A stretch of 64,000 nucleotides of DNA from an uncultured Ardenticatenia bacterium. Lineage in GTDB: Bacteria > Chloroflexota > Anaerolineae > 4572-78 > NAK82. Where the stretch lies: contig CAKZLO010000033.1 of the NCBI GenBank assembly GCA_937127125.1, positions 69,217 through 133,216 of the forward strand. Direction: 5' to 3'. Every line of letters starts with the position of its first letter. Within the stretch, counting starts at the first letter, position 1. Both the position numbers and the translations under genes were made by a program. Shown in pieces: positions 3,666 to 55,349 of the stretch. A model generated the notes under the pieces. It was not told the DNA's origin and searched no databases. It saw only the letters and a program-made list of their open reading frames with translations.

Positions 3666-3966
3666 ATGAGCTCAAGAGCAGCAGAATACCTGTGACTAAG
3701 CCCAACCCCAGTAGACTGTAGGCAATACTTTGCCAGCGCTGTGCTGTACCCAGTGTATGACCTAGCTGCTCGTGAAATTGTATCCCGGTGGCCATCGCAG
3801 CTTGGTTGTCAGGGCGGTAACCGAGCACTCGAGCAAACCACCATGCCCGCCGGCAGAAAGCATAGTAGCCCACCTCACTTGCTCGCAACACGAGGTCACC
3901 ATGGGAAACCGGCGTTGCGTCACCTGTTTCATCGTGGAGATCAGAGAGTCGGGAAAAGTAGCTCAC
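3655..3966 (-). CDS. Small membrane-anchored protein with a Cas4-N-terminus-like motif
   Basis: 103 aa, GTG start 3 nt after the translin stop. SEVGYYAFCRRAWWF...GIQFHEQLG resembles the N-terminal Cys-helix and following His motif of Cas4 nucleases. C-terminal TM helix IAYSLLGLGLVTGILLLL. Confidence 0.5.
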   Translation of the reverse strand: MSYFSRLSDLHDETGDATPVSHGDLVLRASEVGYYAFCRRAWWFARVLGYRPDNQAAMATGIQFHEQLGHTLGTAQRWQSIAYSLLGLGLVTGILLLLSSCGT

Positions 3967-3969
3967 ACC

Positions 3970-4659
3970 TCACAAAGTCTCCGGTTCCCGGGTTTCGGAA
4001 AAGTTATCGGCGAGCGTAGGAGGAGCGCCCAATCCGCTGCGTGTGCTGAACTCGCGCAAGGCTGCTTTCATTTCCTCTTGGCGCACCGCTGTTGTGAGAT
4101 CGCCGCGAGTGCGTTCCAGAACGGCGCGCACCGCATCTGTGCTGCGTCGCAGCCCACCGGTGATGGCCTCCGAGAAATCCATCGTGATCAGCAACGTATA
4201 GACCTCGTCCATGATGTCGAGCAGGCGCTCTCCGGTGGCCACGTCGTCATGGCGCAGTCGGTCGAGCACATAGCGGCGCAGCTCACCCATTGCCTCAGCG
4301 AGACCGTTCAGATAAGGAGCTGCCTGTACTCCGAGCGTCTGGGGCGTGGGCACTTCTCGGTTGGTGATCAGCGCATACGTCAGATGGGCTTCGCTCAGCT
4401 CTTTCAGGGCATCTTGTGTGTAGCCGGCGTAATACAGATCGGGGTGATCGGCGATTTCTCCCGTCATATCGGCAGCCGCCGCTCGTGCCTCCTCGAGCAG
4501 CTGCTCTGCTTCAGGCCACTCGCCCCGATGGATAGCGCGGATGGCATGGGCACAGTAGCGCGTCAGCTGGCGCGCGCGCCGCAGTGTTTCGTCACGCAAC
4601 TGCTCCTTGAGCTCGAGCTCGTGGCGAATGGAATCAACGATGGCGTGCAGCTGGCTCAT
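3970..4659 (-). CDS. Translin/TRAX family protein
   Basis: 229-aa all-helical protein. YYAGYTQDALKELSEAHL...APYLNGLAEAMGELRRYVLD...LLDIMDEVYTLL matches the translin-family pattern as I recall it. SD GAGG overlaps the ssb stop. Confidence 0.7.
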   Translation of the reverse strand: MSQLHAIVDSIRHELELKEQLRDETLRRARQLTRYCAHAIRAIHRGEWPEAEQLLEEARAAAADMTGEIADHPDLYYAGYTQDALKELSEAHLTYALITNREVPTPQTLGVQAAPYLNGLAEAMGELRRYVLDRLRHDDVATGERLLDIMDEVYTLLITMDFSEAITGGLRRSTDAVRAVLERTRGDLTTAVRQEEMKAALREFSTRSGLGAPPTLADNFSETREPETL

Positions 4660-5865: not shown

Positions 5866-6846
5866 TCAGCCCCCTATTCCTGCCATGGGACGGGAAGTGG
5901 GAAAGATGCCCTGCGCCAGCATGCTGCCGTACGGCTTGCATTGGATAGCACGTGAGAACAGATCGGCCAGAGCGTCTACTGGGTCGTCCGCGCGAAGTCT
6001 CGGACGTAAGTCCCACTCTTCATCTTGCAGAAGGCACAATCGGATGCGTCCGTCTGCCGTCACACGGATGTGATTGCAACGATGGCAGTATGCGTGACTT
6101 ATCGGGCTGATGAACTCCAGGCTCCCCTTACCCCCAGCTAACCGGTATCGGTACGTGTCTCTATCAGTCCCTGCTTCCTGTTCTGCCACCAATGGCCCCC
6201 ATGCCCTTTCGATGCGTGCCCGTGTTTCTTGGTTTGCAACGTAGTGCTCCAGCGCGAACTGTGCCGGCTTGCCCAGTGGCATGAGCTCAATAAACCGGAC
6301 ATGCCACGGGCGCTGCAACGTGAGCTGGGCCATCTCGACCACGTCCGTCTCGTTGTAACCATGGACCACCACGACGTTCAGTTTGATAGGGGACAAACCA
6401 ACCTGCTCAGCGGCAAGAATGCCCTCCCACACGCGCTCTAGACAATCGCTCCCGCTCAGCGCCTTTATGTGGGCGCCGTTCAAACTGTCCAGATGGATGT
6501 TCACACGGCGCAGGCCGGCCTCCCGCAGCGGCGCAGCCAGCTTTGCCAGACGCACCCCGTTGGTCGTCATCACCAGCTCTTCAATGCCTGGGATGTTGCT
6601 CAGGCGGCGGACGATCTCGAGGAGATCGGGGCGCAGCGTGGGCTCGCCCCCTGTCAAACGCAGCTTGCAAATCCCTACCCGCACGGCGGCGAGGGCCACC
6701 TGTTCGATTTCGTCTGCAGTGAGCAGGCGGGCATGCGCTAACTTCCCGGCTCCCCCATCCGGCATGCAGTAGCGACAGCGCAGATTGCAACGGTTTGTGA
6801 CAGAAAGACGGAGATAAGTGATGGAGCGGCCGAAGTAGTCCTGCAT
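5866..6846 (-). CDS. moaA: GTP 3',8-cyclase MoaA (radical SAM, molybdenum cofactor biosynthesis)
   Basis: SVTNRCNLRCRYCMP (CxxxCxxC), overall MoaA layout, C-terminal Cys motif YCHRCNHIRVTADG. Confidence 0.9.
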   Translation of the reverse strand: MQDYFGRSITYLRLSVTNRCNLRCRYCMPDGGAGKLAHARLLTADEIEQVALAAVRVGICKLRLTGGEPTLRPDLLEIVRRLSNIPGIEELVMTTNGVRLAKLAAPLREAGLRRVNIHLDSLNGAHIKALSGSDCLERVWEGILAAEQVGLSPIKLNVVVVHGYNETDVVEMAQLTLQRPWHVRFIELMPLGKPAQFALEHYVANQETRARIERAWGPLVAEQEAGTDRDTYRYRLAGGKGSLEFISPISHAYCHRCNHIRVTADGRIRLCLLQDEEWDLRPRLRADDPVDALADLFSRAIQCKPYGSMLAQGIFPTSRPMAGIGG

Positions 6847-44679: not shown

Positions 44680-45336
44680 CTATGGCAGGCCGGTGACTTT
44701 GATCCCGGCCCCATCCGCATTGTAGCGCTTGTTGATGCCGATCAGAATAGCAGTCAGCCCCTCGACCACCACCGCATTCTGCAGTGGCCCGGCGTCGAGG
44801 CCTCGCATGCCGGCCGCCTCTGCCAGTGCGATCGCCTCGGCCTTGGCGTCCTTGTCATCGCCGCACACCAACACGTCGCACTCCACTGGATCATCCAGAT
44901 TACTCAGATGGGTGGCGCTGACATTCTGGAAGGCGCACACGACGCGCACCGCATCGCCTAACAGCGCCTGCGCCTCGGCTGTGGCGCTGCCGCCGGGTGG
45001 AATGTGTACCCGGCTGACCTTGGGTGGCTGCAATGGCACGGTAACATCTACCAGGACCTTGCCCGCCAGTTGCGTTCGAATGCTCTCCAGCGTTGCGGAG
45101 TGGGCGTTGTAGGGCACCGTGAGCACGACGATGTCAGCTGTTGCCGCCGCCTCCGCGTTGAGCATACCTTCCACCAGAGGCGCTCCCAGACGCGCATTGA
45201 GGGATTCGGCGACGGCGTGTGCCTTGGCTGCCTCACGCGAACCAATGATGACTCGATAACGACCCGATTTCGCCCAGCGCAGAGCGAGACCAGGGCCTTG
45301 GTGGCCTGTTCCGCCAATGATTGCAACAGTCTTCAT
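44680..45336 (-). CDS. NADPH-dependent F420 reductase (NpdG/FNO-like)
   Basis: MKTVAIIGGTGHQGPGLALRWAKSGRYRVIIGSREAAKA and overall ~218-aa length fit the F420:NADP oxidoreductase family. Confidence 0.75.
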   Translation of the reverse strand: MKTVAIIGGTGHQGPGLALRWAKSGRYRVIIGSREAAKAHAVAESLNARLGAPLVEGMLNAEAAATADIVVLTVPYNAHSATLESIRTQLAGKVLVDVTVPLQPPKVSRVHIPPGGSATAEAQALLGDAVRVVCAFQNVSATHLSNLDDPVECDVLVCGDDKDAKAEAIALAEAAGMRGLDAGPLQNAVVVEGLTAILIGINKRYNADGAGIKVTGLP

Positions 45337-45424
45337 TGTTCTTCTCCCAGAATGGTTTGATCGGCAAAGCGATGATGATCAGCCGCCTGGCAGCCCCTGT
45401 AACAGTTCATCGCGCCCATGCCCC

Positions 45425-46297
45425 TTAGTGTTCTTGACGCAGAAGGAACAATCCACCCAGGCCGTCGGCCACGTAAACGAGATCGTTCGCCACGGCCACA
45501 GCCCAGGCAGTGCCCGGGGTGTTAATAGCTTCAGTCTCGACCGGCAGCGTCGGGTTGGCTGCGTTGATGACACACAGGCCGTCAGAACCTGTAGCTATGT
45601 AGATGGTGTTGTCCACAGCTACTATGTCCTCGATCCCTGCACCGCCGGTCGGGTCAACCATGCCCACCTCACGAGGTGTAGTCGGGTCACTTACGTCCAC
45701 CACCAGCAAACCGGCATAGCACGTCCCATCGCGGCACACGTTCTGGGCAACGTATGCATGATCTCCGTACACTTTCACCTTTTGGGCAGAGCCGGGGACC
45801 TCCATAACGCCAGCCAGAGAGGCATACTCTGGCTGGGCAATGTCGACAATTTGCAGCCTGGTGTCGCCAGCGGTATAGGCATAGTGCCCGGCGATGGCAA
45901 CACCCAGAGCCGGGGTTTCCAGGAATGTTACGGCACGAGGAGATGTTGGCTGTCTCAAGTCAACCAACCAGAAACCGGCCGATTGAGCTGCTACGCCGGC
46001 GTAGGGGCCGTCGGGCGTCAGCGCGATGTCTTGCACCATGTCATGAAACACGATGTAACCAACTCGCATATCTGAGTTCGCGGTGGCCGGATCCAACACT
46101 GCAAGTTCGGGGCCACTCCCGAGGTAGAGGTAGCCCGCGTGTGCTACGAGCACGTTTGGGGTGCCCCCCAGATGGCCCGCCACACCGAAACTCTCTGCAA
46201 AAGCGACACCAGTCGATATTTGGGCGAGGACGGCGAGTCCCATGACACCGCTAACCAGCAACCTGAGTGCATAAGGAAAGATACGAGATCGCATCAT
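45425..46297 (-). CDS. Secreted LVIVD-repeat beta-propeller protein
   Basis: Signal peptide plus repeated motifs GFWLVDLRQPTSP, RLQIVDIAQPE, GLLVVDVSDPTTP, GLCVINAANPTLP. Confidence 0.75.
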   Translation of the reverse strand: MMRSRIFPYALRLLVSGVMGLAVLAQISTGVAFAESFGVAGHLGGTPNVLVAHAGYLYLGSGPELAVLDPATANSDMRVGYIVFHDMVQDIALTPDGPYAGVAAQSAGFWLVDLRQPTSPRAVTFLETPALGVAIAGHYAYTAGDTRLQIVDIAQPEYASLAGVMEVPGSAQKVKVYGDHAYVAQNVCRDGTCYAGLLVVDVSDPTTPREVGMVDPTGGAGIEDIVAVDNTIYIATGSDGLCVINAANPTLPVETEAINTPGTAWAVAVANDLVYVADGLGGLFLLRQEH

Positions 46298-46331
46298 TTT
46301 TGTACCGCTCTCTTCCCGTAATCAGCGACGA

Positions 46332-47669
46332 CTATATCTCCATCACGCGTCGCCACACCCCCTTGGCCAGCTCACGGGCGCGTGCCGTGATGGCGGCTTC
46401 GTCCAATGTGAGCAGCTGGCGATCACGCATCAGCAGCTGACCACCACAGATGGTGTGCGTCACCTGGCTGCCGTCCATGCCGAACACGATGTGCCAAGAG
46501 AAGTTGCCATCGGTCAGCGGTGTAAAGGGGTAGTAGTCCAGCAGGATGATGTCAGCCAGCGCACCTGGCTCGAGCGCGCCCAAAGGCTTGTCCCAGAAGA
46601 GGCGCGCCAGTTGTGCGTTGTTGGCAAAAGCCATGCGCATTACCTGGTCGGCCGGCATGGCGCGTGGATCCCGCGCGTGCAACTTGTGCACCAAGTAGGC
46701 GACGTGCATTTCGCTAAACATATTGTTGGAGAAACCATCATTGCCGAGTGCCACATTGATGCCGCGATGCAGCATGTCGGTCACATCAGCAACTCCGACC
46801 GCATTGTTCATATTACTGCGCGGCTGGTGGGTGACGTGCGTGCGGGTAGCGCGCAGCGTTTCCCGTTCGTAGCCGTCCACGTGGACGCAATGCACTGCAA
46901 TGGTCTGTGGCCCCAGCACCCCGAATTTCTCCAGGCGTTCCACAACGCGCATGTTGTGTTTCTTCAAGCAGTCGCGCTGGTCGGCCATGTCCTCCGCCAC
47001 GTGGAGATGCAGCCCCACGCCCAGCGCACGCGCTTCAGCCACACAGGTGGCCAACGTCTCGTCCGACAGGGTCATGCTGGCGTGCATTCCGAACGAAGCA
47101 CCCAGACGTGGGTGGGGGTTCTGGCGCAGTTGGCGAACGAAGCGCACGTTTTCAGTGATGCCGGCACGCGCGCCAGCAACACCATGGCGGTCGGTTACTT
47201 CATAGCACAGACTGGCCCGCACACCGGCCTGTTCGACGGCCTCGGCGATGGCATCCAGTGAGCCTTCGATCGCGTTGGGGCTGGCGTGGTGATCGATCAG
47301 TGTGGTGGTGCCATGGCGAATGGCATCGACCAGACACACCAGGGCGCTATAGGTGCAATCCTCAAGTGTCAGCACCCGGTCGATCTTCCACCACAGTTTC
47401 TCAAGAATCTCTGGGAAATTGGAGGGAGCCTCGCCCGGGATCGCCATTCCACGCGCGAAGGCGCCGTAGAAGTGGGTATGCCCACAGATCAAGCTGGGCA
47501 TCACAATTTTGCCTGCAGCGTCCAGCTTTTCGGCATGGGGATAGCGCAAGATCAGTTCAGCGGTGGAGCCGACGTCCAGGATCGTGTCGCCTTCATAGTA
47601 AACTGCACCGCTGTGTATGACACGTGGCGTCGTACCAAAGGTGATAAGCGTACCATTGGTGATCAGCAT
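46332..47669 (-). CDS. Amidohydrolase-superfamily aminohydrolase (SsnA/chlorohydrolase-like)
   Basis: Start moved to ATG 47669 (SD GGAGGGAA). MLITNGTLITF...MPSLICGHTHFYGAF (HxH metal motif), HVAE, and GNDGFS. Confidence 0.8.
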   Translation of the reverse strand: MLITNGTLITFGTTPRVIHSGAVYYEGDTILDVGSTAELILRYPHAEKLDAAGKIVMPSLICGHTHFYGAFARGMAIPGEAPSNFPEILEKLWWKIDRVLTLEDCTYSALVCLVDAIRHGTTTLIDHHASPNAIEGSLDAIAEAVEQAGVRASLCYEVTDRHGVAGARAGITENVRFVRQLRQNPHPRLGASFGMHASMTLSDETLATCVAEARALGVGLHLHVAEDMADQRDCLKKHNMRVVERLEKFGVLGPQTIAVHCVHVDGYERETLRATRTHVTHQPRSNMNNAVGVADVTDMLHRGINVALGNDGFSNNMFSEMHVAYLVHKLHARDPRAMPADQVMRMAFANNAQLARLFWDKPLGALEPGALADIILLDYYPFTPLTDGNFSWHIVFGMDGSQVTHTICGGQLLMRDRQLLTLDEAAITARARELAKGVWRRVMEI

Positions 47670-47714
47670 TTGAGGCTTTCCCTCCAAAGTGGTGGGTGTT
47701 ATTGACAAGTTATA

Positions 47715-47736
47715 CCTGCGAAAACACCTCGATCAT
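47715..47736. repeat. 22-bp direct repeat, copy A (vestigial 3' end of the LLM gene)
   Basis: CCTGCGAAAACACCTCGATCAT is identical to 48657-48678. On the minus strand it reads ATGATCGAGGTGTTTTCGCAGG + TATAA, encoding MIEVFSQV-stop. Confidence 0.9.
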
Positions 47737-47775
47737 TATGCACAGATTGCTCAGCCCCACATTACTGCCCTGCCG

Positions 47776-48381
47776 CTATTCCGAGACCTCTTCGTTGTTG
47801 CCGGGCAAGGTCTCTATCAGTTGCTCAAGGAGGTTACGAATTCCCAATCTGTCGGCAAGGTCGCGCACAGCAGCCACGTTCAACGCCTCCCCCTGTATGA
47901 GCAATATTCCTCTCGCATCGCGCAGATGTTTGTCCGATCCAGTCTCACGATAGGCTATGAGTTTGGCAATGACAATATCCTCGGGGGCAATGACATATGC
48001 AGAGCGCCCGCTCTCGTCCAGTTCAAGCCGTTGGCGACGCTGGAATGCCAACCTTGTAAACAGGTCATCTGGCAATGGGATTAGATCGACCTTGGCCCCT
48101 GTAGATGGCTGAATAACATTAAAGGGGTATCGCCGCTGCAATGAATCGCGTATCGCTTCTTCACTGGCATAGTAATCAGGAATAGGGAAGCGTTCCACAA
48201 ATGGCGACACATCTGCTGGTTTCATATCTACAACGATATCTATGTCAATCGTTAGCCGCGGCTCGCCGTAAAGTATCGCAGCGAATCCTCCTACGACCAT
48301 ATAGGGAATCCCCAGATGCTCGAGTGTCTCTATCACATACATGAAGAAAGATCGCAGCTCGTTCTCGGTTGCCCGTTGCAT
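47776..48381 (-). CDS. Minimal nucleotidyltransferase-fold protein (toxin-antitoxin-like NTase)
   Basis: LGIPYMVVGGFAAILYGEPRLTIDIDIVVD matches the pol-beta NTase signature (GG ... DxD). 201 aa. Confidence 0.6.
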   Translation of the reverse strand: MQRATENELRSFFMYVIETLEHLGIPYMVVGGFAAILYGEPRLTIDIDIVVDMKPADVSPFVERFPIPDYYASEEAIRDSLQRRYPFNVIQPSTGAKVDLIPLPDDLFTRLAFQRRQRLELDESGRSAYVIAPEDIVIAKLIAYRETGSDKHLRDARGILLIQGEALNVAAVRDLADRLGIRNLLEQLIETLPGNNEEVSE

Positions 48382-48385
48382 GGTG

Positions 48386-48655
48386 TCATCTGCCTATGTT
48401 GGGGTTCCCCTGTATTCGTCGTGTCACCAGCCAGGCAAGCTCCTCATCGGATAGGTCGGGATGCCGTCGCCGTTCGCTTGCGCGTATCATGTCTAACACT
48501 ATCTGATAAATCTGGCAGGCGATGTCAAACCGGCGTGCTGCGCTCATCGCCCGCCAGATGGAAATTTGCTGCGGGCTGGTCTCCCCCAATTGGCGACGCA
48601 ATCCACCCACGCGGTTATTACCGACGGGTGAATAAAGCGTTTCAACCGTACTCAT
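48386..48655 (-). CDS. Small helical protein, partner of the NTase (89 aa)
   Basis: The ATG overlaps the LLM stop (ATGA) and it ends 4 nt before the NTase gene. No recognisable motif. Confidence 0.5.
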
Positions 48656-49650
48656 GCCTGCGAAAACACCTCGATCATCAGGTATGGATCGCCCAACGGA
48701 TAGAGCACGGGGCAGGTGCAGCCATGGGCGATGTACTCATTCACTTTGGCCTTGACCTCCTTGGGTGTGCCACTGGCAGTGATGCGCTGCACCAGCTCAT
48801 CCGGCACGAACCGCATAGCCTCCTTTATCTGTTCCTTTGTCGCTGGCCAGCCCAAGATGTTCTGGATTTGCTTGACCACCTCTTCACTGACGCCACTCGC
48901 CTGTGCGATGTGCGGCTGCTGCGCCAGATATTGGGTGAGCAGTGCCCGTGCGCCATCCAACGCCACTGCCTTATTGGTATGCACAGAGCAGACGATCAGC
49001 TGGGGTCGATCAATCTCGTCGAACTTGCGACCTGCGCGCTCGGCACCTATCCGCAGGTGTTCCAAGGCTGGATCGTTGTATTCCACCGGCACGCAATAGT
49101 TGAGCAGCACCCCATCTGCGATCTCGCCGGCCAGCTCCATCATCTTCATCCCTGTTGCGCCGATCATCAGCGGCACATTCCGCGGCTCGCGTCGCCCGTG
49201 CACTACATCCAACTCGATCCCGGTGACATGGATGAATTCGCCGTGGAAGGTGACGTTCTCCATGCGCAGCAGGCGACGCACCACCTCGATCGTTTCGCGC
49301 ATGGCCACCAACGGTTTCTTGCGCTCGATGCCCACGTTCTTCGCCAGCGGATCCCACCATGCGCCGATGCCGCAAATGATGCGGTTGGGGGCCAGATCGT
49401 CCAGTGTCAGCAGCGTGGCAGCTAGCAGGCCCACATTGCGCGTCCAGTTGTTGATCACTCCTGATGCCACCTTAATGCGTTCTGTGACCGCGGCATAGGC
49501 GGCCATGGGCACAATCGCGTCGCGCACCAGCCGACTCTCCGCCTGCCAGACAGCTTCGAAGCCGTGTTTCTCAGCAAACTGTGCCAGCTTCATCCCCTCG
49601 CGAATGGGGTGAGCGTCTTGCAAATAAAGTGCTACCCGTTGCTTGGCCAT
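48652..49650 (-). CDS. Luciferase-like monooxygenase (LLM) class, probably F420-dependent oxidoreductase
   Basis: [45 protein letters not shown] and the TIM-barrel LLM layout. The cofactor is inferred from family and the nearby FNO gene. Confidence 0.75.
48657..48678. repeat. 22-bp direct repeat, copy B (functional 3' end of the LLM gene)
   Basis: CCTGCGAAAACACCTCGATCAT. On the minus strand it encodes MIEVFSQ(A), the last residues of the LLM oxidoreductase. Confidence 0.9.
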
Positions 49651-54007: not shown

Positions 54008-55349
54008 GCGCGAGGTAAAACTTTCGGTGGTCACCAGACACCACCAGACTTGTCCCATTTGCGGAGGAGCAGGGTTCCTGCGCAAGGACGTGCCGGTGGG
54101 GCATCCCGAGTTTGGCAAGGTGGTTGCCTGTGAGTGCCAACGGCCACGCCTGGAAGCAGCGCGACTGAACGATCTGCGCGCGATGAGCAATTTGGAGGCA
54201 ATGAGCCGTTTTACTTTCGAGACCTTCAAGCCTGAGGGTGTCGGGCTCACGGAAGAAAAGCGACATAACCTGCGCAGTGCTTATGAGGCAGCTCGTGCTT
54301 TCGCGGCAAACCCCCAAGGGTGGCTGGTGTTGCTCGGAGGGTATGGCTGTGGGAAAACACACCTGGCAGCTGCGATTGCCAATGAGCAGCTGATTTTGGG
54401 GAGGCCGGTGTTGTTTGTCGTGGTGCCGGATTTGTTGGATCATTTGCGCGCTACTTTCAGCCCTCATAGTACTATCACCTACGATCGACGTTTCGAGAAC
54501 GTGCGTAATGTGACCGTGTTGGTCCTGGACGATCTGGGCACCCAGAGCAGCACTGAGTGGGCGCGGGAGAAGCTCTTCCAGATATTCAACCATCGTTACA
54601 ATCTGCGTCTTCCCACCGTGGTCACCTCCAACTGCAAGCTGGAAAGCATCGACGTCCGCATTCGTTCGCGCCTGATGGATCCTGACCTGGTACGCATTTG
54701 TCATATTACGGCGCCCGATTACCGGAGCAGCGGGAGTGAGATGCTTGGCTATGAGCTCTCGAGCCTGGAGCTGCACAGCGATCAGACATTCGACACGTTC
54801 AGCTTGCGAGAACGTGAGCTCACCCGTGAGCAGGTTGAAAACCTGGAGCAGGTGTTAACCTTCGCGCGGAACTATGCAGCTAACCCCGAGGAATGGCTGG
54901 TGTTGACGGGGGGCTATGGCAGCGGCAAGACCCACTTGGCGGCTGCCATTGCCAACGCGCGCCGTGCGATGGGAGATCACAATGTGCTGTTTGTAGTGGT
55001 CCCGGACTTGTTAGACCATTTGCGCGCCACATATGCGCCGGACAGTCATGTCTCCTACGATACGCGCCTGGAACAGGTACGCAATGCTCCCTTGCTCGTC
55101 TTGGACGACTTGGGCACGCACAGCGCCACGCCGTGGGCGCAAGAGAAGCTCTATCAAATCTTCAACTATCGCTATAATGCTCGTTTGCCCACTGTTATCA
55201 CCATTGCGGACGGGGTCAACGTGGACGAACGGCTCAAAGCGCGCTTGTTTGACGTGCGACATTGCACTATTTTGCGCTTGAACGTGCCCAGCTACCATGG
55301 CCAGACAGCACCCCCAACTGTGTTGCCGCCTCGTCGCAAGCGACGCTAG
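53976..55349 (+). CDS. Helicase-loader-like protein with N-terminal zinc ribbon and two tandem DnaC/DnaI/IstB-type AAA+ modules
   Basis: CPICGGAGF...CECQ, then module 1 (GGYGCGKTH 54336-54359, LVLDDLG, VVTSN). Module 2 lies 573 nt later (GGYGSGKTH 54909-54932, LVLDDLG, VITIA). Start is uncertain (ATG 53976 or GTG 54027). The 5' part of track ORF 53742.. overlaps the DnaD-like gene. Confidence 0.75.
   Translation: MKSSNGSSNIEREVKLSVVTRHHQTCPICGGAGFLRKDVPVGHPEFGKVVACECQRPRLEAARLNDLRAMSNLEAMSRFTFETFKPEGVGLTEEKRHNLRSAYEAARAFAANPQGWLVLLGGYGCGKTHLAAAIANEQLILGRPVLFVVVPDLLDHLRATFSPHSTITYDRRFENVRNVTVLVLDDLGTQSSTEWAREKLFQIFNHRYNLRLPTVVTSNCKLESIDVRIRSRLMDPDLVRICHITAPDYRSSGSEMLGYELSSLELHSDQTFDTFSLRERELTREQVENLEQVLTFARNYAANPEEWLVLTGGYGSGKTHLAAAIANARRAMGDHNVLFVVVPDLLDHLRATYAPDSHVSYDTRLEQVRNAPLLVLDDLGTHSATPWAQEKLYQIFNYRYNARLPTVITIADGVNVDERLKARLFDVRHCTILRLNVPSYHGQTAPPTVLPPRRKRR

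Follow-up and report, generated by a model that had tools for sequence, protein, structure and literature searches.

A putative MenAT1-like toxin-antitoxin cassette, lacking its own promoter and recombinase, at the stop codon of a luciferase-like oxidoreductase gene in an uncultured Ardenticatenia bacterium

The 64,000-nt stretch of DNA analysed here (contig CAKZLO010000033.1 of an uncultured Ardenticatenia bacterium; hereafter the window) carries a two-gene cassette between the gene of a luciferase-like oxidoreductase (LLM) and that of an SsnA-type aminohydrolase (ssnA), all on the minus strand (Table 1). The insert is 920 bp long and is accompanied by a 22-bp duplicate of the LLM 3' end. It encodes a small protein of an antitoxin family followed by a minimal nucleotidyltransferase (NTase), a pair that we read as a MenAT1-like toxin-antitoxin module. 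The LLM oxidoreductase itself is probably F420-dependent; the NCBIfam families of F420-dependent LLM proteins match it below their cut-offs.

The cassette is bounded by two exact copies of a 22-mer, CCTGCGAAAACACCTCGATCAT, which lie 942 bp apart. No such pair is expected by chance (0.00 in 100 dinucleotide shuffles), and no third copy is present in the 64-kb window, with up to 3 mismatches tolerated. On the minus strand, copy B is read as the end of the present LLM gene (...MIEVFSQ, then GCA TGA); its upstream side has the ancestral context and aligns with the LLM 3' ends of relatives. Copy A, together with the next 5 nt, reads MIEVFSQ-V-TAA, and the same Q-V-TAA ends LLM at the cassette-free locus L163 described below. 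Extension of the repeat by similarity leads to 42 nt at 81% identity, which is not significant (anchored alignment test, P = 0.13-0.34), and the repeat is thus essentially 22 bp long. On the same test, attP-like arms, i.e., homology beyond the 22-mer, were rejected.

Every nucleotide of the 920 bp can be allotted: a single nucleotide precedes a 270-nt gene, 4 nt separate this from a 606-nt gene, and a tail of 39 nt follows. At the upstream junction the C-terminus of LLM is rebuilt, with a change of its last residue from V to A, and the LLM stop is fused to the start of the antitoxin gene (48655), the two overlapping as ATGA; the last residue and the stop of LLM (GCA TGA) are therefore now supplied by the insert. 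The toxin gene begins 4 nt past the antitoxin stop. At the other end, the former LLM end and stop and the ribosome-binding site remain in place before ssnA. No recombinase is encoded in the insert, which has no room for one, and the neighbouring genes are metabolic. Terminal inverted repeats are absent from the insert, as are terminator-like sites, and no promoter-like site was found upstream of the antitoxin gene. The sole sigma-70-like match of the insert sits inside the NTase gene, and shuffled sequences yield as many. The tail contains neither a terminator nor a stable fold (z = 0.74), and its similarity to the LLM 3' region and to the LLM-ssnA spacers of relatives is not significant. A likeness to dif/Xer sites was noticed by eye only, as was, at the right junction, a -10-like CATAAT; neither is supported by any test.

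Table 1. Coordinates of the cassette, its bounding repeats and the adjacent operon genes in the window
Feature	Position	Strand	Description
Direct repeat copy B	48657..48678	-	22 nt of LLM coding sequence, ending just before its final codon (M-I-E-V-F-S-Q plus G)
Direct repeat copy A	47715..47736	-	former LLM 3' end, non-coding now
Inserted segment	47737..48656	-	920 bp (942 bp including one repeat copy)
Antitoxin gene, 89 aa, MenA1-like	48386..48655	-	Pfam PF18993
Putative MenT1-like toxin gene, 201-aa minimal nucleotidyltransferase	47776..48381	-	Pfam PF19502, profile, fold
Non-coding tail of the insert	47737..47775	-	39 nt, from NTase stop to copy A
Ancestral LLM stop (GTA TAA) and 40-nt spacer	47670..47714	-	spacer has GGAGGG ribosome-binding site of ssnA
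LLM target gene, luciferase-like oxidoreductase, 332 aa	48652..49650	-	PF00296, E 1e-65
SsnA-type aminohydrolase, downstream operon gene	46332..47669	-	NCBIfam NF005540, 557 bits vs cut-off 444

Close relatives of the locus were taken from contigs retrieved in a protein search for LLM homologues, with 90-97% identity. In loci L163 to L171 among these, the order amidohydrolase - LLM - SsnA-type amidohydrolase - F420 oxidoreductase is that of the window, but without the cassette. Their LLM proteins are 97% (L163/L164 and L168-L170) or 96% (L171 and L165-L167) identical to that of the window, and the DNA of the relatives is 79-83% identical to it. L163/L164 have a single exact 22-mer, followed by TGTAA where the window has TATAA after copy A, then by a 24-nt spacer and the ssnA ATG. 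When aligned with them, copy A and its downstream flank correspond to the ancestral LLM end, stop and ribosome-binding region, and copy B and its upstream flank to the ancestral LLM body; the ancestral stop and spacer of the window likewise align with the short LLM-ssnA spacers of relatives. These results show that the LLM-ssnA site was once empty. Among the 183 fetched loci, the 22-mer occurs only at this empty site of L163/L164; it varies at 2-5 synonymous positions in L165, L171, L168, L182, L183 and L184. As the two copies of the window are identical while the 22-mer has diverged in these other relatives, the duplication is young relative to those splits. None of the relatives carries the window's own cassette. 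The ending of LLM, FSQV or FSQA, was considered as a marker of empty and filled sites and rejected, since empty sites have either. More distant LLM loci, of which 80 were found in species-representative genomes (at most 86% identity), contain no cassettes but have no conserved synteny, and are useless as empty sites. Exact-match look-ups with the proteins of the window returned no contig.

A first-pass annotation of the window, made from the sequence alone, had already described the exact repeat pair, copy B as the LLM 3' end, copy A as the ancestral stop, and between them an 89-aa gene starting in the ATGA overlap and, 4 nt behind it, a 201-aa NTase. This description is confirmed. Copy A was also correctly placed before the ATG of the next gene (47669), the distance from its TAA being, however, 40 nt and not 38. 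Two outcomes that would have spoken against an insertion, a lack of empty sites among relatives and a 22-mer dispersed in the genome, were not observed: in L163/L164 the LLM stop leads to ssnA without any cassette, and the 22-mer is limited to two copies in 64 kb. The segment had finally been judged AT-rich by eye, and this is what is measured. The insert's GC content is 52.9%, against 57.4% for the window, which places it at the 1.4th percentile of 920-bp windows, and the GC content at third codon positions (GC3) is 0.54 in the NTase gene, while the genes on either side have 0.74 (LLM) and 0.72 (amidohydrolase). Both measures thus differ from the flanks; their meaning is weakened by locus L184, as discussed below.

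The junction between LLM and ssnA is hypervariable in this clade. Its spacer measures 24-25 nt in L163 and L168-L170, 113 nt in L171 and 341 nt in L165-L167, reaches 2.9 kb in L182, and comprises at least 442 nt and an unrelated gene in L183. The non-coding spacers of L165-L167 (5000-5340) and of L171 (5000-5112) have only their last ~35 nt in common, and no repeats or called genes were found in them. In L184, whose LLM is 91% identical to that of the window, a divergent but complete antitoxin-NTase cassette lies between LLM and ssnA (1299-2303). It is preceded by a 129-nt hairpin-rich spacer, with three nested hairpins on CTGGATT/AATCCAG, and its NTase stop lies only 8 nt from ssnA; a direct repeat is absent. 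In L182 (1-6916; LLM 90% identical), the junction is occupied by a gene for a 784-aa beta-helix-like secreted protein, then by an orphan antitoxin gene of the PF18993 type with no NTase, followed by a perfect 26-bp hairpin. This orphan antitoxin is 61-65% identical to that of the window, and the rare Cys47 and Val53 are present in both. Neither L184 nor L182 has a repeat of the 22-bp type, and their spacers differ. Upstream of LLM in L182, a GmrSD gene, an NTP_transf_2 and HEPN pair (783-1524), a DDE transposase gene and a DUF2283 gene replace the usual amidohydrolase gene. The LLM-ssnA junction is therefore a recurrent site for this cassette family in the clade and, because L184 and L182 have related modules there, the cassette of the window is not a one-off random capture.

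The antitoxin is assigned by a single Pfam match, to PF18993 (Rv0078B-related antitoxin; E 3.1e-7, 30.8 bits for a cut-off of 27.1), and the toxin matches PF19502 (DUF6036; 27.7 bits for a cut-off of 23.6), with weak AbiEii matches in Pfam (E 7e-4) and PADLOC (E 1.6e-3). The NCBIfam search of both proteins and the PADLOC search of the 89-aa protein gave no match. A profile built from 25 homologues of the toxin family detects in the PDB a fungal NTase-like structure (5uvd, E 5e-6) and MenT1 (8an4, E 1.7e-4). The AlphaFold2 model of the toxin (predicted local distance difference test, pLDDT, 82; predicted template-modelling score, pTM, 0.80) retrieves MenT1 in Foldseek (8an5_A/8an4; E 1.4e-5 to 1.9e-4, probability 1.0, TM 0.46-0.52), with 20-21% identity over ~205 columns. 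MenT1 is the best bacterial structure match, ahead of ANT(2'') and CCA-adding enzymes, only the fungal 5uvd being marginally better. In the alignment of the 25 family members, T44, D46, D48, K140 and D155 are invariant. T44, D46, K140 and D155 correspond to T39, D41, K137 and D152 of MenT1, catalytic residues that have been mutagenesis targets (PMC10435456). In the hidden Markov model alignment with 8an4, RLTIDIDIVV is paired with RFTRDVDIVV; the spacing from K to D is 15 residues in both proteins, and it is from this spacing alone that the C-terminal equivalence is deduced.

The toxin-antitoxin system MenAT1 (Rv0078B-Rv0078A of Mycobacterium tuberculosis) has been established by experiment. 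In it, MenT1 extends the acceptor ends of tRNAs with nucleotides, preferentially cytidines, and MenA1, of 68 aa, contacts two MenT1 protomers and triggers auto-phosphorylation of T39 (PMC10435456, PMC11375011). As in MenAT1, a PF18993 antitoxin gene lies directly upstream of a minimal NTase toxin gene of ~200 aa, the modelled toxin has MenT1 as its nearest bacterial structure, and the equivalents of the four MenT1 residues are conserved. By analogy, extension of tRNA 3'-CCA ends and neutralisation by antitoxin binding would be expected (PMC10435456, PMC11375011). Unlike MenT1, the toxin of the window belongs to DUF6036 (PF19502), and not to DUF1814/AbiEii, at curated thresholds, with ~21% identity to MenT1; the antitoxin has 89 aa instead of 68, with an extra N-terminal segment; and, whereas MenAT1 is reportedly repressed by the neighbouring Rv0078, the cassette has no promoter of its own and rides on the host operon. 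The pair is thus read, from its sequence families and the modelled fold, as a MenAT1-like module whose toxin belongs to an uncharacterised DUF6036 branch. The first-pass annotation had proposed a toxin-antitoxin pair, which this reading retains, but of the AbiE or MNT-HEPN kind, which it replaces. The type IV AbiE system (AbiEi-AbiEii) has an NTase toxin of the same superfamily; in the window, however, the toxin is of smaller size and does not reach the AbiEii cut-off, and there is no winged-helix partner of the AbiEi type (COG5340), the 89-aa protein matching PF18993 only. Neither cassette protein has a HEPN match in Pfam, unlike the MNT-HEPN systems, of which a genuine example is the NTP_transf_2 and HEPN pair of L182.

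The association of the two genes is maintained well beyond this locus. A PF18993-type gene is found directly upstream of the NTase gene in nearly all of the ~80 metagenome loci with the upstream flank present. The same order and tight spacing recur in L081/L082 (JGI contigs), L172-L181 and L184, and in related loci the two genes are 4-8 nt apart or overlap. These cassettes occur in varied contexts, including beside ParE/Phd; only 1/60 loci is adjacent to a tRNA gene. None of the ~90 others has an LLM or ssnA/amidohydrolase neighbour; in the clade of the window, the family is thus bound to the LLM-ssnA junction. The DUF6036 branch is frequent in Chloroflexota and in sediment metagenomes; 883 proteins were detected, and those examined are ~50-70% identical. 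No relatives of the toxin were found in viral contigs. The nearest NTase homologue other than the window's own protein has ~66-69% identity in full-length comparison, and at most 73% in partial alignments. One cassette variant, P0092, is present in 24 contigs from many samples in a single context, beside genes for a NosD/beta-helix protein and an alpha-2-macroglobulin-like protein (L172-L181), with a different right flank in L176.

All these results lead us to propose, with a probability of roughly 0.7, that a promoterless and recombinase-less MenAT1-like cassette has integrated at the LLM stop codon, inside a formerly tight operon. A mobile or horizontally inserted cassette, captured in an operon without its own recombinase, had been suggested in the first-pass annotation, and this is supported by the empty site and by the 920 bp, which hold nothing else. 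The structure is the one expected after a Campbell-type single crossover within the 22-mer, between the chromosome and a 942-bp circle of the cassette, which would contain the junction ...CTGTGCATA-22-mer-CATGAGT. The crossover might be catalysed by a site-specific recombinase provided in trans; another candidate is host recombination on short homology, with a circle that would come from a relative already having the cassette at this junction. A crossover is favoured over random transposition or cut-and-paste because the upstream junction is already "mature", with the LLM C-terminus restored and the antitoxin start coupled to the LLM stop, and because of the related modules in L184 and L182. 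Without signals of its own, the cassette is expected to be co-transcribed with the operon; the antitoxin would be translationally coupled to LLM and the toxin translated 4 nt behind it, while ssnA retains its own ribosome-binding site. By homology with MenAT1, the toxin is expected to extend tRNA 3'-CCA ends by nucleotides and thereby to block aminoacylation, and the antitoxin would bind the toxin and keep it inactive, possibly via auto-phosphorylation at Thr44, the T39 equivalent. Cells losing the module would then be arrested, and the pair could act as an addiction or stress module.

Several points weigh against this proposal. No circular form, recombinase or donor was seen, within a view of the genome that is limited to 64 kb. 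Flanking repeats are not general in the family: of the 57 homologous cassettes that could be tested with both flanks, only 3 have repeats above the null expectation (the window, L081/L082 and L104). The cassette of L184 is only 64% (toxin) and 51% (antitoxin) identical to that of the window, and its junction architecture differs. The toxins of the window and L184 are sisters in a BLOSUM neighbour-joining tree and not in a Kimura tree (37% bootstrap support), and the rare states that the two share are tied with those shared with unrelated loci. The GC3 of the L184 cassette is, like that of the window's cassette, ~15-20 points below its own flanks, even though the two hosts are ~19 points apart. 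Because of this equal deficit, the low GC content is weaker evidence of recent foreign origin, and may be a property of the cassette genes rather than a mark of recent arrival; it was not kept as a proof of recent transfer. As for the identity of the pair, the antitoxin profile barely detects MenA1 in the PDB (8an5_C, E 0.42), a literature search for DUF6036 found no mention of it, and the AbiEii profile (PF08843/DUF1814) scores the toxin at 20.1 bits, under its cut-off of 22.5. It is because AbiEii is below its cut-off, and PF19502 above, that the module is filed as MenAT1-like and not as a member of DUF1814.

The two copies could also have been generated without any crossover, if a linear cassette had been pasted into a 22-nt staggered break, by a transposase acting in trans or during break repair, and if fill-in of the overhangs had duplicated the target. 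We consider this credible, but unlikely. Both copies indeed correspond to the lineage-specific target, identical at 22/22 positions in the L163 empty site, there is no significant homology past the repeat, and no recombinase is present in the insert. The exact ATGA overlap would however need luck, as would a chance landing at the very junction that holds related modules in L184 and L182, and the insert has no terminal inverted repeats. The precedent for such an event is the insertion of restriction-modification (RM) genes with long target duplication, a class described by Nobusato in 2000 and by Furuta, Abe and Kobayashi in 2010 (PMC2853133), with no mobility gene, target-derived repeats, empty sites and lower GC content (PMC2853133, PMC3874152). 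Like its members, the cassette is an addiction module of less than 20 kb, without any other gene of mobile elements, with a lower GC content than its flanks and with an empty site in a relative that has a single copy of the repeat (L163/L164); repeats at gene 3' ends are also possible in the RM cases (PMC2853133). It differs from them by its cargo, toxin-antitoxin and not RM, by the reuse of the same junction in relatives, and by its 22-bp repeat, which is longer than usual transposon duplications, whereas the class is defined by more than 30 bp, typically 40-100 bp or more.

A somewhat more doubtful alternative is that the cassette is old at this junction, inherited from an ancestor shared with L184 and L182, the empty sites of closer relatives then being secondary and precise deletions, which a 22-bp direct repeat would permit. 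Such a history would account for the related modules, complete in L184 and limited to the antitoxin in L182, for the BLOSUM grouping of the window and L184 toxins and for the GC3 deficit of both cassettes relative to their own hosts. The identity of the two copies in the window, when the 22-mer has changed at 2-5/22 positions among relatives, is difficult to reconcile with it, and so are the absence of the repeat and the different spacers in L184 and L182. Moreover, as at least four lineages nearer to the window than L184 have no cassette, the addiction module would have to have been lost several times independently. The sister grouping itself is lost with Kimura distances.

It is improbable that the pair is no toxin-antitoxin system at all, the NTase being a small-molecule modifier of the ANT(2'')/Lnu type or a housekeeping NTase, and the small protein its regulator. 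A weak match to the Pfam family Aminoglyc_resit (E 0.04), Foldseek matches to ANT(2'')-Ia and LnuA (E 3e-3 to 2e-2) and the silence of the literature on DUF6036 agree with this possibility; they are outweighed by a best bacterial structure match, MenT1, that was solved in complex with its antitoxin, by a partner that matches the MenA1 antitoxin family above the curated cut-off, by the gene order, which nearly all related loci keep with a spacing of 4-8 nt or an overlap, and by the varied contexts of these loci. Finally, the window probably being a metagenome-type assembly, with proteins recorded via NCBI/JGI/Logan/ENA entries, a chimeric join or a collapsed population variant at the 22-mer may be imagined, but this is very improbable, as 22 bp are shorter than the usual final k-mers of assemblers, as a loop needs an insert bounded on both sides by the 22-mer in real DNA, as 2 contigs, from several sources, are on record for each of the antitoxin, the toxin and LLM with the final Ala that the junction encodes, and as L184 independently has a cassette at the junction.

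Besides the window, the flanking-repeat survey points to two other loci. In L104 (365-1454), a homologous cassette is bounded by CCAGTCCGGGGCAACGA and CCAGTCCAGGGCAACGA, two copies of 17 nt with 1 mismatch and a spacing of 1003 bp. The first corresponds to the 3' end of a tRNA-Leu(GAG) gene, and each copy is followed by its own, different hairpin. L104 is a probable second repeat-bounded case and looks like an islet containing only toxin-antitoxin genes at a tRNA gene; if it is an insertion, its empty site would consist of tRNA-Leu(GAG) directly followed by GAACAGGGCAGAGCTTGACTCTGCCCC. In L081, a 27-nt motif is found in three copies (3675-3701, 4607-4633 and 6375-6401), and the same holds for L082. 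It is a perfect palindrome, TGTTTCACGTGAAACA, followed by a TTGACA-like box, and its copies lie upstream of three transcription units: the cassette, DUF4268, and a DUF302-ECF sigma unit. The motif is probably a shared operator/promoter; its third copy, and its likeness to a palindromic operator with a -35 box, led to its rejection as an insertion scar.

The tail of the insert was also compared with sequences upstream of other antitoxin genes, where a circular permutation of the cassette might have placed it. The comparison with the region upstream of the L182 antitoxin gene is not significant (P 0.4). In L084, AATGTGGGGTTGAG (396-409), upstream of the antitoxin gene, matches 13/14 positions of AATGTGGGGCTGAG in the window tail (47749-47762), downstream of the toxin gene; this match is marginal (P 0.033 over 66 loci).

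A more general, and tentative, possibility, which as a whole we find rather unlikely, is that this MenAT1-like lineage is a minimal integrative module without its own recombinase, which would target gene 3' ends (LLM here, tRNA-Leu in L104), regenerate the target end and take over the transcription and translation of the host operon, and which would move by mobilisation in trans or through Campbell integration, on short homology, of a ~0.94-kb circle. It would be reminiscent of the integrative elements that target gene 3' ends, such as tRNA-gene islands and integrase-less elements mobilisable in cis: the repeats correspond to the 3' end of the target, which is regenerated, the site is recurrent, and the L104 cassette is bounded by the duplicated 3' end of tRNA-Leu. 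Unlike these elements, the insert of the window has no integrase in or beside it, is smaller than 1 kb and contains only toxin-antitoxin genes; its target is a protein-coding gene of narrow distribution, and no excised form is known.

Two other features of the window were noted. Between ssnA and the F420 oxidoreductase gene lies a gene for a LVIVD-repeat protein of 290 aa (open reading frame 45425-46297, minus strand; region 45336-46344), at a place where the gap is only ~40-50 nt in all close relatives. This region is a second lineage-specific insertion in the same operon, without a flanking direct repeat and with a typical GC content. Elsewhere, downstream of a DnaB-like gene, an 85-nt direct repeat of 75% identity (54303-54387 and 54876-54960, 573 nt apart) resembles a duplication, internal or tandem, within coding sequence.

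The locus thus combines two known kinds of elements, a toxin-antitoxin system with an NTase toxin, and an addiction module inserted between repeats that derive from the target. It provides an unusually clean natural record of the entry of toxin-antitoxin genes, in which a filled site can be aligned base by base with an exact empty site and with decayed versions at the same junction, and in which a cassette without expression or mobility signals has been wired into the host operon through a stop/start overlap. It also extends the pairing of a MenA1-type antitoxin with an NTase toxin to the large, uncharacterised DUF6036 branch. If the preference for the junction reflects real targeting, the locus would offer a testable model of how addiction modules move without a recombinase of their own. 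If these cassettes are indeed minimal integrative modules, a toxin-antitoxin pair would be the entire cargo of a site-specific mobile unit.

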